Of a stretch of DNA of 64,000 nucleotides, positions 1-15,267 are shown piece after piece. Both the position numbers and the translations under genes were made by a program. The DNA is taken from NCBI GenBank assembly GCA_965238005.1, contig OZ250165.1, forward strand, positions 1,792,001-1,856,000. Direction: 5' to 3'. The first letter of the stretch is position 1. Every line of letters begins with the position of its first letter. The notes beneath the pieces are model-generated. The model ran no database searches. It had not been told where the DNA came from and worked only from the letters and a program-made list of their open reading frames with translations. The DNA comes from Longimicrobiales bacterium (lineage in GTDB: Bacteria > Gemmatimonadota > Gemmatimonadetes > Longimicrobiales > Gaopeijiaceae).

Positions 1-209
1 TCGGCCTGGAACGCCGGGTGGCACGGAGCGGAAGGGACTCCATCGACCACGCCCCCGGGGGACGCGACGACGTGGCGAACGCTGCAACGGGCGCGCTCAC
101 GCTTCTGACCGCTGCATGTGCTAACGGGGCTTACGTCATGACCCTCCACATCTAAGGACCGCGTGAAGGACGACAGACGATGAAGAGCAATGACAAAGAG
201 GGAGGCGAC

Positions 210-407
210 ATGATGGATGGGTCACCGATAGAAGCGGGCATTGAGCAGGCTCTCATGAGTCTGGAGAGAAAGGGCCTCGTGGAGCGAACCGGCGAAATAC
301 GAGACGGTCGTGAAGAATGGAGACTAACCCGGTTCGCCCAAGACCTCAGTGAGTTTAACCCGCAACTCGAAGCTCTGATCTGCCGCGATGGACCGTTCCT
401 GAACTGA
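210..407 (+). CDS. Small hypothetical protein, possibly winged-helix-like
   Basis: GGAGG at 201-205 precedes ATG 210; segment ALMSLERKGLVERTG...WRLT resembles a wHTH recognition helix plus wing. Confidence 0.45.
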   Translation: MMDGSPIEAGIEQALMSLERKGLVERTGEIRDGREEWRLTRFAQDLSEFNPQLEALICRDGPFLN

Positions 408-644
408 AGAGCACATGCGGAACCTCCCGACGCCCCTCAAGAGGAACCCCCTTTTTTCTGGATGTTAGAGATACCCCCTGCGCGGTCATGTTGCTGCTGA
501 GAATTAATGATCAGTGGATAATGGTTTGGAGATCCGGCAGAGGAATCAGGCTGAGAAGATTCATGCCGCTGAAGCATGAGGCCGTGAGTTCGACTCTGGT
601 CGCTGTCAGCATCGGCAGCGGCGAGTACCGTTAGGTTTACGGTC

Positions 645-881
645 ATGGACTTGACGCCTGATGAGCAACCTGTCGTCCGTCGTGCTGTGGCGGCATACCA
701 CGAGACGAAAAAGGGGCACGAGGGGCCATTCAGAGGCACGACTGCCGACGAGATTCTCGAAGAATTGAAGCCGTCTCCCGTCCGTTGGGTTGAACTCGCC
801 GCGTTCGTGATCCGAACGGCAGAAGGACCCAAACGAAGGAATCGATACCGTCGTGCACGTCGCGTGCGGTTGGCATCTTGA
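645..881 (+). CDS. Hypothetical protein (78 aa)
   Basis: ATG-started ORF with protein-like composition, same strand as neighbours; no recognised motif. Confidence 0.35.
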   Translation: MDLTPDEQPVVRRAVAAYHETKKGHEGPFRGTTADEILEELKPSPVRWVELAAFVIRTAEGPKRRNRYRRARRVRLAS

Positions 882-965
882 TCGCGCAGTAGAATCGCAA
901 ATCCGCTGGGATGCGAACCTAGTCGCGGCGTCTGGGCTCAAGGGAGCGGTAACGGGAACACACGC

Positions 966-1775
966 GTGAGGCACCATACTCCCGAGGATCGCGAGTTCTT
1001 CGTGGAGCGGTACGGCCGACCGATCTCAGATGCGGCGCGGAAGCTTGAGCGAGCGGTGTTCGGGCACGAGGTTGGACTAAACGGATTCACTACCGTCGCT
1101 CAGGCTCACCGTCTCTCCGATCTGCTTGAGTTGGGGTCCCAATCAACCTTGCTGGACGTCGGCGCGGGGCGTGGGTGGCCGGGCCTCTATATCGCGCGGT
1201 CAAGCCAGTGTCGAGTCGTGTTATCTGACATTCCGATCGAGGCTCTCCGGCAAGCTCCATACTACGCAGAACAACAAGGAGTCGCCGGGCTGGTGAGCGC
1301 CGTTTGCGCGGACGGCGTGGCTCTGCCCTTTGTCCCTGCCTCTTTCGACGCACTGGTCCATACGGACGTGCTGTGTTGAGCCCAAGACAAGCTCTCCGTG
1401 CTGAGAGCGTGTCGCGAAGTTACCAAGCCGGGCGGGCGAATTGGTGGGTATACGATTCACACGCCGAGCGGTCTCGATCGAGATGCAGCGAAACGTGCGT
1501 CGGAACTGGGACCGAGCGAGGTAGGTGCCGGTCAATCACCGGCCGATTTACTCCGAGCGGCCGGTCTTGTGGTGTACGTCGACGAGGACGTGACCGATGC
1601 ATTCCACGAGAGTCTCGAAGCATTTCGAGCTGCAATGGATGAGCTGGAGGACGACTTGCGCCGCGAAGAGGGCGACGCCGTTTTCGAGGAGTGGCAGGAG
1701 AGGCGAACCAACATGGTTCAAGGGGTCTCGGAGGGGCTACTGCGGCGGTCACTTTTGGTAGCGGTTAAGGCATAG
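966..1775 (+). CDS. Class I SAM-dependent methyltransferase, candidate selenoprotein (in-frame TGA at 1377-1379; 269 aa if read through)
   Basis: ORFs 966..1379 and 1398..1775 share a frame. Motif I LLDVGAGRG and LPF-x-x-x-SFDA lie before the TGA; the expected continuation KLSVLRACREVTKPGGRI lies after it. Hairpin directly 3' of the TGA. Confidence 0.8.
1386..1413 (+). promoter_or_regulatory. Putative bacterial SECIS element
   Basis: GACA-A-GCTCTC [CGTGCT] GAGAGC-G-TGTC; the apical loop starts 17 nt after the UGA and has G at its second position. Confidence 0.65.
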
Positions 1776-2385
1776 CTGCGTACTCGGGGCCGGTTCGCAT
1801 TGTGACCACGATCTCCCGCAACATCCTACACGCCCACAAGCAGGTGTGGACGCTCTCGATCCTGGCGAGTGATACCGTGAATCGACGCTTCGAGGTACGC
1901 AGAGGCGGTGGAAGAGGACGGCGCGTTCATCGATTACTACTCAACGTTCGTCTTCTCATCAGTCCCATGTTTCCTACGTGCTTGCAAGGGTGGCAAGATC
2001 ACGTCATGGTGGTGAAGGCGCTCACTCTTCGTTGACTTGCCTAGAGCTGGCGAGGAGTTCTGCGAGCGCAGGCTCGGCGAGGATCTTCGAGATATGGCGA
2101 GGCGTGCGGTATCCCGAGCTTGAGGCGTCCGATCCGGGCGGCCTCGCATATGCCGGGCTCGTGCGTCTCGTCTTGTTTGATGGAGTCGTAGCTGAGGCGT
2201 CTGGCTGAGCGGCTGCCATGCGCCGGATGGGGACACCATGGAAAAGGCTCCCGTGACCTACAGGGTGGTTGGCGCCAAGAAGCCCGAGGTGCCTTGAGAG
2301 AGAGACCTTAGAGACCCTTTCCGAGTCCGGCGCCCTGCTTGAGCGCGCAATCTCGGAGTGCTCGATCACGACTAGGAGGACTACG

Positions 2386-13666: not shown

Positions 13667-15267
13667 GAGTCTGCGCCGCAGAAGCACAGCTGACTGAGCC
13701 GAATGGTCATCGAGCCGTCCGCGGCGAGGCGGATCCGGGTGATTGGGAGGTTGAGGACTTGTGTCTGCGATGGATCGGGAGAGCGGAATGGATGCGTTGG
13801 GGGGGCAAGAGAGCTACGAGAGCCCTCGCGCCGGCAGATGCGGGTGAACCCTCGTGCAGTCATGCCGCCTGAAGGGTGTGCAGCCGCTTCACATTGAGTG
13901 CCAGGCACACGAGGGTCCACTCGGCCCGGACCTTCTCGAGGCCCCGGAAGCTGAATCGTCGAAAGCCCATCACTTCCTTGATCCAGCCGATGGGCGCCTC
14001 GGCCTGCGACTTTCGCCGTGCGTAGCGTCTGCGGCCATCTTCGCTCGCCAGCTTCTCCGCCATGCGGACTTTCGCCGGATATTCCTCCTTGTCAACCGTG
14101 GGGGCGGCCTTGCCCTCCCGGGCCAGCGCCACATACCCGTCGATGTCTCGCTCTTCCAGTTCCTCGAGATCCCGCTCGTTGCAATAGCCCGTGTCCGCCA
14201 GCACCTGCGCCGGCGTCTCGCCGTACGCTTGCGCCACCGCGTCGACCATGGGCACCAGCTGGCCCTGGTCGCTCGCGTTGTCCGTCACCTCGGCCCCGAC
14301 CACCAGCTGGTTCTCCCCCTCCACAACCGTCTGTGCGTTGTAGCACTGCTGGAACCCCTCCGAACTCGTCTTCATGATCCGGCTCTCAGGGTCCGTGAAG
14401 TTGCTCTGCGCCGCCTCGTCCGGCTCTCCGTACTCCCGCTTGTAGGGCCTGCCGCCCTTCGGGTTGCGCGTCTGCCCCGGCTTGCGGCCCCGTGCGTCGT
14501 CCGCCGCTCTCTGCTCGGCTTCCAGGCGCGCCTTCGCCTCCCGGATCGCCGCCAGCCGGTCCTCGCGCCGCTTGAGCTCCTCCGGCACCTCGTCTCCGCA
14601 TGCTTCCTCGCCGTAGCGCTCGTCTTCCGCTTCGTCCACCGCCTCGGCCCTCTCCAACAGCCCCCGGATCTCCGCCTCCAGCCGAGGCTCCCCGGTCACC
14701 ATCCGGCCGTAGCTCATCGCCTTGCGCTTGTTCGCGTTCGCCCGAACCTTCGTCCCGTCCACCGACACCCTGCCAAGCCCCGCCAGCCCCAAGGCCCGCG
14801 CGAGCATCACCACCTCCACAAACACCGCCCGGAAATCCCCGAGATGGCGCTTGCGGAACTCGCACAGCGTCCGGTGCTTCGGGAAGTTCTCCGCCGCCAG
14901 CATCCGAAACGCGACATCCTCCTCCAGCTTCCTCGCCATCTTCCGCGACGAGAAGGTGCCCGTCGCATACGCGTAGATCAGCACCTTGACCATCATCCGA
15001 GGGTCGTACGGCGAGTTGCGCCGCCCGTCCCCCCGGTACCGCCCGTAGAACGCGCTCAGCTCCACCGCGTCCACCAGGTCGCTCACATGGTGCGCCAAAT
15101 GACCCTCCGACACCCACTCCCGAAGATCCGGAGGCAGCAACAACATCTGCTCCGGATCGTACGGTCGAAATGTCGTTCCCATTCACCCCCCTCGGTGATC
15201 CGCAAGCCTTCCCAATGCCTTCGCTACCACCAAAGATAGCCGCCGCAGGGTTCTGCGGCGCAGACTC
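13667..15267 (-). mobile_element. IS1182-family insertion sequence (1601 bp), 17-bp perfect TIRs, CTAG target duplication
   Basis: GAGTCTGCGCCGCAGAA (13667-13683) and TTCTGCGGCGCAGACTC (15251-15267); CTAG at 13663-13666 and 15268-15271. Confidence 0.92.
13860..15182 (-). CDS. IS1182-family DDE transposase
   Basis: LLPPDLREWV-x-x-x-HLAH, YDPRMMVKVLIYAYATGTFSSRK, VSVDGTK, TDPESRIMK, YNAQ, LADTGY, GFRRFSFRG. Confidence 0.95.
   Translation of the reverse strand: MGTTFRPYDPEQMLLLPPDLREWVSEGHLAHHVSDLVDAVELSAFYGRYRGDGRRNSPYDPRMMVKVLIYAYATGTFSSRKMARKLEEDVAFRMLAAENFPKHRTLCEFRKRHLGDFRAVFVEVVMLARALGLAGLGRVSVDGTKVRANANKRKAMSYGRMVTGEPRLEAEIRGLLERAEAVDEAEDERYGEEACGDEVPEELKRREDRLAAIREAKARLEAEQRAADDARGRKPGQTRNPKGGRPYKREYGEPDEAAQSNFTDPESRIMKTSSEGFQQCYNAQTVVEGENQLVVGAEVTDNASDQGQLVPMVDAVAQAYGETPAQVLADTGYCNERDLEELEERDIDGYVALAREGKAAPTVDKEEYPAKVRMAEKLASEDGRRRYARRKSQAEAPIGWIKEVMGFRRFSFRGLEKVRAEWTLVCLALNVKRLHTLQAA

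Follow-up and report, generated by a model that had tools for sequence, protein, structure and literature searches.

In two reviews (2022 and 2026), the Global Ocean Sampling (GOS) and Sargasso surveys and an algal selenoproteome paper, as far as these sources were accessible, the methyltransferase-type selenoproteins listed comprise only ArsM, MGMT, MduS and fusion forms. Both MduS and methyltransferase/UXPK-star appear in the table of the 2026 review (PMC13188914), in which ArsM-type selenoproteins are given the motif UxxG. Here we describe a gene in a 64,000-nucleotide stretch of DNA from a Longimicrobiales bacterium of the phylum Gemmatimonadota (assembly GCA_965238005.1, contig OZ250165.1, positions 1,792,001 to 1,856,000 of the forward strand; this whole stretch is referred to as the window, and positions are counted from its first nucleotide). 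With a probability of roughly 0.9, positions 966 to 1775 are predicted to constitute one genuine selenoprotein gene, mis-split in two, for a class I S-adenosylmethionine (SAM)-dependent methyltransferase that carries a vicinal Cys137-Sec138 dyad (Sec or U, selenocysteine) at its post-β4 site.

MduS and methyltransferase/UXPK-star resemble the window protein in combining a methyltransferase domain with Sec. However, these families contain Sec twice, in motifs of another kind (CxxU; UxxG together with a C-terminal UXPK), whereas the window protein has an internal C-U dyad, and the window gene scored far below the cut-offs of both NCBIfam models (24.2 versus 380 bits for MduS, NF045649, with its CxxU; 32.6 versus 460 bits for methyltransferase/UXPK-star, NF047649). 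Membership of ArsM was rejected as well, with 26.9 versus 510 bits for the fusion model NF041537, 20.6 versus 575 bits for the fusion model NF041536 and no match to the arsenite methyltransferase model NF008823 at E <= 0.01; nor was the window gene among the 12 places in the host genome that matched NF008823 at E <= 1e-5. The best NCBIfam match was the DVU_1556 family methyltransferase (NF045667), which fell below its cut-off (44.4 versus 155 bits) and for which 15 other places in the host genome outscored the window gene. The preliminary description of this locus had left open whether the protein belongs to a named family, and in the comparison with the NCBIfam profiles that it proposed, every selenoprotein cut-off was missed.

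The ArsM-type selenoproteins share with the window protein that they are class I SAM methyltransferases, that Sec stands for a conserved Cys and that Cys homologs exist. The host genome contains a canonical Cys-only ArsM (L150, 325 bits) and two ArsM-like genes with one in-frame TGA each (L151, G000:C1:1138073-1138663, + strand; L152, G000:C1:3644252-3644839, - strand), which, judged from their sequences, fit the known ArsM-type (UxxG) selenoproteins. In both of these, Sec is found in ...LW(T/A)x-U-I-(A/G)-G approximately 50 residues past β4 and the post-β4 motif reads ISNG. In the window protein, by contrast, Sec is part of the post-β4 loop dyad, and both Cys and Sec are absent from the UxxG region after β5.

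The best matches in both sequence and fold were phosphoethanolamine N-methyltransferases (PMT) and the RebM/AtmM/MitM group of small-molecule methyltransferases (PDB 5wp4, 5wp5, 3uj7, 3bus, 6uv6 and 8zc8), none of which is a selenoprotein among the structures listed. PMT, RebM and MitM share with the window protein the Asp and Lys of the pattern D-x-x-x-[H/U]-x-x-x-K, but their catalytic His corresponds to Sec or Cys in the window family, and the Leu, Ile or His preceding it corresponds to Cys. Adjacent chalcogen side chains also occur in MbdU, ArsD, ArsI, MerA, HgcB and thioredoxin reductase, an arrangement typical of soft-metal(loid) binding or of a ring with redox activity, but none of these proteins is known to present it in the catalytic loop of a SAM methyltransferase; in thioredoxin reductase, the GCUG motif forms the C-terminal tail of a flavoprotein, while the window dyad is internal (residues 137-138 of 269) and lies in a methyltransferase domain. 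MbdU is listed in the 2026 review as a 'CU' metal-binding selenoprotein (NF045648; PMC13188914). A word search found the family absent from the tables of the reviews, surveys and algal paper named above, within their accessible parts, and a literature search for such a Cys-Sec methyltransferase family returned nothing relevant. By these comparisons the family is uncatalogued and lies outside the NCBIfam selenoprotein models, and its Sec site and vicinal dyad differ from those of the known Sec methyltransferases.

The gene can be read as a single frame on the forward strand (966-1775), from a GTG at 966 over one internal TGA at 1377-1379 to a TAG stop at 1773-1775. Under translation table 11, this same frame is reported as two open reading frames (ORFs) of 137 residues (966-1379) and 125 residues (1398-1775), while read-through of the TGA yields a product of 269 residues with the peptide ...FDALVHTDVLC-TGA-AQDKLSVLRACREVTKPGGR around the TGA. 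The proposal of the preliminary description that the two ORFs are one interrupted frame, encoding a 269-residue Sec-containing methyltransferase, thus agrees with the sequence as read. Homolog alignments span the query from residues 2-12 to residues 266-268, and the frame 3′ of the TGA is open as far as the conserved C-terminus. The Pfam Methyltransf_11 match (7e-14; 52.6 bits against a cut-off of 21.2) runs from residue 63 to 159 and therefore crosses the TGA, in keeping with the earlier argument that the fold needs both halves. Methyltransf_25, Methyltransf_31 and Methyltransf_12 were also found above their cut-offs, the Pfam matches together covering residues ~58-159. Within the SAM-binding motif I, residues D64, G66, G68, G70, W71 and P72 are invariant in a 56-sequence alignment (A3), as is D88 at the end of strand β2, so that the residues typical of a class I methyltransferase are in place.

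The TGA itself does not appear to be an assembly error: it was unchanged in contigs (contigs, not raw reads) of two further runs (X2 and X5), one labeled as a different organism and one derived from a sediment metagenome. In runs registered as RNA, 6-19% of the words sampled from the stretch were present. Comparison of runs X1-X5 across positions 1363-1411 additionally revealed that in run X1 the contig depth rises approximately six-fold over positions 1376-1409. Short pieces of other contigs, from further members of the family present in those samples, match nothing but the stretch that comprises the TGA and the hairpin downstream of it, which is therefore the most conserved DNA of the gene.

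The conservation of the TGA codon was first assessed at the protein level in the 120 best full-length homologs out of 279 hits at E <= 0.001 (38-48% identity). At the TGA column, 119 of these proteins carry Cys and one carries Trp; at the preceding column, 119 carry Cys and one carries Gly, within the context motif H-T-D-V-L-C-C. At the DNA level, a scan of 61 related genomes yielded, next to the window's own copy, six orthologs from six genera (38-55% identity), all six with TGA at the same codon. Among 401 genomes of the phylum, TGA was found at this codon in 10 of 11 matches, the eleventh being a paralog of 32% identity with His at the Sec column; His at this column is a feature of the distant same-phylum paralogs L023 and L039. 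The TGA was likewise present in 7 of 8 matches in a sample of a Dehalococcoidia-type class and in 10 of 11 matches in a sample of an Acidimicrobiia-type class (301 genomes each; the codon position was checked in all ten of the latter). It also occurs in database records titled Acidimicrobiaceae, Actinomycetes, Ca. Azotimanducaceae and Acidimicrobiales, and a Dehalococcoidia record showed two consecutive TGAs. A metagenome scan with Cys-form seeds returned 80 loci.

From approximately 125 loci with the dyad pattern, 21 nt before it and 60 nt after it, collapsing duplicates left 93 distinct regions, which comprise 77 C-U, 6 U-U, 2 U-C and 8 C-C forms. Among the fetched genome and metagenome DNA copies, Sec forms thus outnumber Cys forms by 85 to 8, and these Sec forms stem from several bacterial classes with 38-55% protein identity to the query. 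Several loci that fell outside the first dyad pattern were checked afterwards and were also C-U, U-U or C-C. Both homologs with a conserved TGA and homologs with Cys in its place, as anticipated for a selenoprotein in the preliminary description, were therefore recovered. In the U-U and U-C forms it is the Cys137 position that has become TGA (U-U at loci L040, L052, L053, L056, L106, L108, L120 and L122; U-C at L054 and L055), and the hairpin is found in the same place in all of these.

A bias is also seen in the codons flanking the TGA. Although these genomes are GC-rich, 65 of 77 C-U forms encode the preceding Cys by TGT, whereas 6 of 8 Cys forms use TGC; on the other side of the TGA, 61 of 85 Sec forms have CTG. 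This bias may reflect a context preference for Sec insertion. The His of the signature (H132 in the window protein) is Ser or Cys in the Acidimicrobiia-type copies L059, L060, L063-L066 and L068 (S-S-D-V-L-C-U and C-S-D-V-F-C-U) and is therefore not essential to the family. A second match to the dyad pattern at L035, in another frame or ORF and reading H-S-D-V-V-C-C, could belong to a Cys-type paralog or have arisen by chance.

Downstream of the TGA, the hairpin at 1386-1413 folds as earlier proposed, with a loop (CGUGCU) that begins 17-18 nt past the UGA and has G as its second base. Across the family, however, only the upper stem and the loop recur. An extended lower stem was rejected as a family feature, its four pairs being kept in only 37, 20, 47 and 69 of the 85 aligned Sec forms, while the six pairs of the upper stem (columns 18-23/30-35 of this alignment) are formed in 97.8% of 510 cells. 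Pair 22/31 is U-A in 76 rows, G-C in 7 and U-G in 2, and is broken in none. In the G-C rows, a Ser codon UCC has become an Ala codon GCC together with a change of the Arg codon AGA to CGA or CGG, constituting the compensatory change that the preliminary description had asked for. The covariation score was reached by none of 500 shuffles, control stems slid along the alignment were paired in 34-73% of cells, and RNAalifold recovered the same stem as the alignment (1391-1396/1403-1408).

The codons that make up the hairpin are also frozen at synonymous sites in Sec forms (CTC in 85/85, GTG in 85/85, TCC in 77/78 and AGA in 69/83), while residues outside of it that are equally conserved are written with four to six codons: Leu-2 uses five codons, the invariant Gly+19 uses four (top share 0.39), and Arg+20 is AGA in only 2 of 69. 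The eight Cys forms have mixed codons over the hairpin and never AGA, which is present in 67 of 83 C-U and U-U forms versus 0 of 8 Cys forms (Fisher p 9e-6, although relatives are not independent).

In general build, this putative Sec insertion sequence (SECIS) resembles the fdhF type, being a short G+C-rich hairpin within the ORF, a few nucleotides past the UGA, with G-U in its loop. It differs from the fdhF type in that the conserved part is small (5-6 bp) and would serve two adjacent UGA positions, as in the U-U and U-C forms; one SECIS thus appears to serve a UGA at two spacings, 17 and 20 nt 5′ of the loop. A similar build was found within the host itself. Its selD is a selenoprotein gene, with TGA at the canonical G-A-G-U position (...HGAG-U-ASKLG..., position 1531 of locus L001), and is followed by a hairpin with a 7-bp stem that starts 7 nt past the UGA and a loop CAUGU from 15 nt past it, compared with the 6-bp stem and CGUGCU loop of the window gene.

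In agreement with the predicted decoding, the host genome (4.84 Mb in one contig) contains the full Sec machinery that the preliminary description had named as a check: selA (556 bits), selB (328 bits) and selD (371 bits) all score above their curated cut-offs, and ARAGORN detects a tRNA-SeC with anticodon TCA. Among the relatives, selA is present in 6 of 7 Sec-form genomes versus a background of 37 in 61, and it is present in 23 of 26 other Sec-form genomes, whereas it was found in neither of the two Cys-form genomes. There was no sign of UGA reassignment, since the neighbors of the gene and the Sec genes use standard stops. The positions of these elements are collected in Table 1, together with those of mobile elements and fragments near the gene.

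Table 1. Features of the predicted selenoprotein gene and its surroundings, in window positions unless a locus is named.
Feature	Position	Strand	Remarks
Predicted complete selenoprotein gene, class I SAM-dependent methyltransferase	966..1775	+	269 codons (TGA counted as Sec), followed by the stop
Most likely start codon, GTG	966..968	+	Earliest start in the ORF; alignments to homologs begin at residues 2-12
SAM-binding motif I, LLDVGAGRGWPG, residues 62-73	1149..1184	+	Inside the Pfam Methyltransf_11/25 match
Family signature H-T-D-V-L-C-U, residues 132-138, post-β4 loop	1359..1379	+	Column counts; DSSP on the model
Cys137 codon TGT, first dyad member	1374..1376	+	Cys in 119/120 full-length homologs
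Predicted Sec138 codon TGA	1377..1379	+	TGA in 77 C-U and 6 U-U of 93 distinct loci
Lys142 codon AAG, overlapping the base of the SECIS stem	1389..1391	+	Lys in 120/120 homologs; AAG in 83/85 Sec forms
Full hairpin of the window copy	1386..1413	+	-13.3 kcal/mol for 28 nt; includes lower 4-bp stem 1386-1389/1410-1413
Conserved putative SECIS core	1391..1408	+	Stem 1391-1396 (GCUCUC)/1403-1408 (GAGAGC); loop 1397-1402 (CGUGCU)
HTH_17 (excisionase/MerR-like) protein, 82 residues	5951-6199	+	No adjoining integrase or tRNA found
DDE_Tnp_1/DUF772 transposase copy	13860-15182	-	Pfam
DDE_Tnp_1/DUF772 transposase copy	L149:1413-2735	-	Pfam
DDE_Tnp_1/DUF772 transposase copy	L149:7233-8555	+	Pfam
IS3-type integrase	L149:3314-4165		Near the gene
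Mutator-family transposase fragment	L149:152-889		Near the gene
Truncated protein-kinase ORF	L149:5944-6375		Near the gene

The position of the dyad within the protein was examined on an AlphaFold2 model built from a 56-sequence input (pLDDT 92.2, pTM 0.90), in which DSSP assigns strands to residues 83-88 and 127-131 (the latter being β4) and a helix from residue 142. Foldseek placed this model closest to PMT, RebM, AtmM, MitM, TleD and sarcosine/dimethylglycine methyltransferase (E about 1e-17, TM 0.74-0.79), and profile matches to PMT-, RebM- and MitM-type structures ranged from E 5.5e-26 to 3.9e-22. In the resulting alignments, the dyad columns coincide with the 'IH' of MitM (ESIIH) and the 'HH' of RebM (ESLHH), while H-t-D-v-L-C-C-l-r-p-K aligns with S-R-D-T-I-L-H-I-Q-D-K of plant PMT, such that the Asp and Lys conserved in PMT find their counterparts in D134 and K142 (K142 being the Lys of 'IQDK'). 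The post-β4 loop of class I methyltransferases lines the methyl-acceptor site, and the histidines of RebM are presumably catalytic, although our literature search found no paper confirming this. In PfPMT, His132 is described as catalytic, as part of a Tyr19/His132 dyad (PMC6705855). By placing the Sec column on the catalytic His of PMT, RebM and MitM, the alignments strongly support the prediction that Sec138 occupies the catalytic His position, at the site of methyl transfer, which bears out the earlier notion that this residue borders the active site.

Together, these data suggest a mechanism in which SelB and Sec-tRNA(Sec) would decode the UGA at 1377-1379 as Sec, directed by the in-frame SECIS hairpin, to yield a small-molecule methyltransferase of the PMT/RebM/MitM structural group. 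In this enzyme, the vicinal Cys137-Sec138 pair would replace the catalytic His next to the methyl group of SAM, and might hold or activate a soft, thiophilic methyl acceptor. Since both dyad positions take Sec (C-U, U-C and U-U) and are equally conserved, a two-pronged chalcogen clamp is favored over a lone base. The SAM methyl group is electrophilic and suits lone-pair acceptors such as As(III), Sb(III) and S, Se or Te species; vicinal Cys pairs are typical of soft-metal(loid) sites, as in ArsD, ArsI, MerA and HgcB, and ArsM uses cysteines to hold As(III). By analogy, we tentatively propose that the dyad may hold a metalloid or chalcogen of thiophilic character as the acceptor, an assignment that we would not press; candidates are trivalent As(III)/Sb(III), or sulfane sulfur or selenium delivered as a persulfide or perselenide. 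Rhodanese, ArsR-type and MerR, DsbA-like and CMD/AhpD-like proteins among the gene neighbors are weak hints towards this class of acceptor. The broader idea that there is a large class of methyltransferases in which His has been replaced by a Cys-Sec or Sec-Sec clamp that methylates As(III), Sb(III), Te or selenide/persulfide is possible but rather doubtful.

Among the alternatives, the one that holds up best concerns the acceptor. The enzyme might methylate an ordinary organic substrate (at O, N, S or C), with Sec138 taking over from His as base or nucleophile and Cys137 tuning or resolving it. The close structural relatives are indeed all small-molecule O-, N- or C-methyltransferases with His at this column, the paralogs L023 and L039 of the same phylum keep that His, and the gene neighbors are diverse, with MFS transporters, Glyoxalase_6 proteins and TetR, MarR and AraC regulators among them. 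However, a role as base would leave unexplained why Sec interchanges at both dyad positions and why the neighboring Cys is as conserved as the Sec column (119/120), so that we consider an organic acceptor unlikely.

It is more improbable that the pair acts outside of methyl transfer, as a redox switch that gates activity by forming a selenenylsulfide. Mammalian thioredoxin reductase does use a vicinal Cys-Sec pair as its redox centre (in its C-terminal GCUG), and DsbA-like, CMD/AhpD-like and pyridine-nucleotide disulfide oxidoreductases do occur near some copies. Nevertheless, the dyad fills the column of the catalytic His with no other catalytic residue evident there, and no reductase partner was conserved beside the gene in 82 loci.

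Other alternatives question the decoding of the UGA. The codon might be read through by near-cognate insertion of Trp or Cys instead of by Sec-tRNA, and the best full-length match, the metagenome protein P0002, has Trp (C-W, encoded by TGG) at the Sec column while nested in a Sec clade; moreover, the base after the UGA is mostly C (a Leu codon CTN in 68 of 85), and a C after UGA is a weak termination context. The Trp of P0002 is most simply explained by a change from TGA to TGG. The complete Sec machinery of the host, a conserved SelB-type hairpin at the right distance, Cys (the standard partner of Sec) as the alternative residue of the family and the standard use of UGA in the neighbors and Sec genes all argue for Sec and leave near-cognate read-through very improbable.

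Even harder to credit is that the TGA is a real stop and that the ORFs of 137 and 125 residues are made separately and assemble as a split methyltransferase. The GTG at 1398 could start the second ORF, and public gene calls do contain such halves: short database proteins matching the family number 599 at E <= 1e-10, and of the best 120 of these, 108 terminate at ...H.D..C, 2 stop one residue short of this, 9 represent C-terminal halves (starting MLRAC) and 1 is a 68-residue call from the host genome. They are named 'SAM-dependent methyltransferase', 'methylase of polypeptide subunit release factors' or 'hypothetical protein', and a natural Cys homolog matches only generic 'class I SAM-dependent methyltransferase' clusters in the ESM Atlas. 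Splitting, however, would cut the post-β4 loop and lose six conserved residues, including the invariant K142, and would place the second start inside the conserved hairpin region. Furthermore, Cys forms consist of one chain, the 'stop' of the U-U and U-C forms is shifted by one codon while the hairpin stays, and the Sec forms are found in genomes with selA, which neither Cys-form genome has. Finally, a nonsense mutation (TGC or TGT to TGA) in a pseudogene can practically be set aside: although one base change suffices, the region holds several insertion sequence (IS) copies and gene fragments and the related L019 has a second TGA with similarity lost after residue 217, the TGA stands at the same codon in 85 aligned homologs of several classes (38-55% identity), both protein halves are conserved, the downstream stem is kept with a compensatory change and the frame is open to the conserved C-terminus. 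L019 itself (G005:C14:281592-282212), in which the dyad TGA is followed by this second TGA, is possibly a decaying or frameshifted copy.

Several observations nonetheless weigh against the reading of this gene as a selenoprotein with a thiophilic acceptor, and all evidence for Sec decoding is comparative. The hairpin on its own is unremarkable in GC-rich DNA: the 71-nt stretch has z = 0.01 versus shuffles, and an equally stable 40-nt fold follows 14% of the window's 823 TGA triplets. Because folding energy alone gave no signal, the significance of the hairpin comes only from the comparison of homologs. Many of the metagenome rows are close relatives, so that the counts overstate the number of independent events, the codon contrast rests on eight Cys-form DNA sequences, and in L070, a Sec form, the stem contains a U-C mismatch. 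In addition, selA was not found in four Sec-form genomes, namely G009 (78% complete) and G442, G443 and G773 (completeness not established). With regard to the acceptor, the metalloid analogy draws on examples of vicinal Cys pairs in other proteins (ArsD, ArsI, MerA and HgcB). The third invariant Cys of the protein, C82 at the start of strand β2, probably lies far from the post-β4 dyad region, so that an ArsM-like three-thiol site is not evident. The search for a conserved operon (198 neighboring ORFs at 82 loci) also revealed no fixed partner, the best themes reaching 6-7 loci each.

These best themes were a rhodanese-containing protein, a Glyoxalase_6 protein directly upstream and two clusters without Pfam matches. 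The rhodanese-containing neighbor, found at 6 of 82 loci, is fused to a metallo-beta-lactamase fold in three cases and to an ArsR-type helix-turn-helix (HTH) in the other three. The small Glyoxalase_6 (VOC-fold) protein, directly upstream on the same strand at 6 of 82 loci (L075, L083, L086, L092, L132 and L145), ends in ...MADPEGNEFC(V/I)C. Other neighbors include MerR regulators, DsbA-like and CMD/AhpD-like proteins and pyridine-nucleotide disulfide oxidoreductases, next to MFS transporters and TetR, MarR and AraC regulators, and an AIR-synthase-type neighbor was observed at L054.

The history of the family was examined in a tree of 207 sequences in which the dyad had been masked. Sec and Cys forms switch 12 times in this tree versus a mean of 64 for shuffled labels, which, at the level of the tree, is what a Sec/Cys family usually shows. 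The U-U form has arisen at least twice, and the Trp form P0002 is nested among Sec forms only (support 0.936). All 13 copies in the tree that come from the window's phylum are Sec forms and group in a single clade (support 0.998), in which the closest partner of the window copy belongs to a different genus (55% identity). Because L020, from the same genus as the window, is basal at 40% identity, the branching within the phylum clade departs from the genus assignments. In another genome of the window's genus, the query found no match.

The mobile island postulated in the preliminary description was borne out only in part. The surroundings are IS-dense and of lower GC content (58-60% over window positions 1-2000 versus 62-68% for most of the next 28 kb), but the gene groups exclusively with copies of its own phylum. 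Recent transfer across phyla on a mobile element is not supported, since the 13 copies of the phylum in the tree form one clade. Three copies of a 440-residue DDE_Tnp_1/DUF772 transposase ORF with identical Pfam scores lie within approximately 26 kb around the gene, and no tRNA or integrase bounding a defined element was found.

Catalogs of selenoproteins draw on Sec/Cys pairs and on curated models, and this family matches no NCBIfam selenoprotein model, while hundreds of its genes are annotated as truncated or hypothetical. Selenium use would consequently be under-counted in soil and sediment bacteria, among them those of the Dehalococcoidia, Acidimicrobiia, Actinomycetes and Gammaproteobacteria types and those of the phylum of the window. 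The predicted Sec beside Cys at the SAM methyl-transfer site offers a lead to new methylation chemistry, and the naturally occurring variants with adjacent UGA-UGA codons make it possible to gauge how much SECIS spacing may vary. If the prediction for these U-U forms is true, one small SECIS would suffice for Sec insertion at two neighboring UGA codons. If the thiophilic clamp is true as well, it would point to an ArsM-independent route for the volatilisation of metalloids or of selenium and sulfur in soil and sediment bacteria that is invisible in current annotation.

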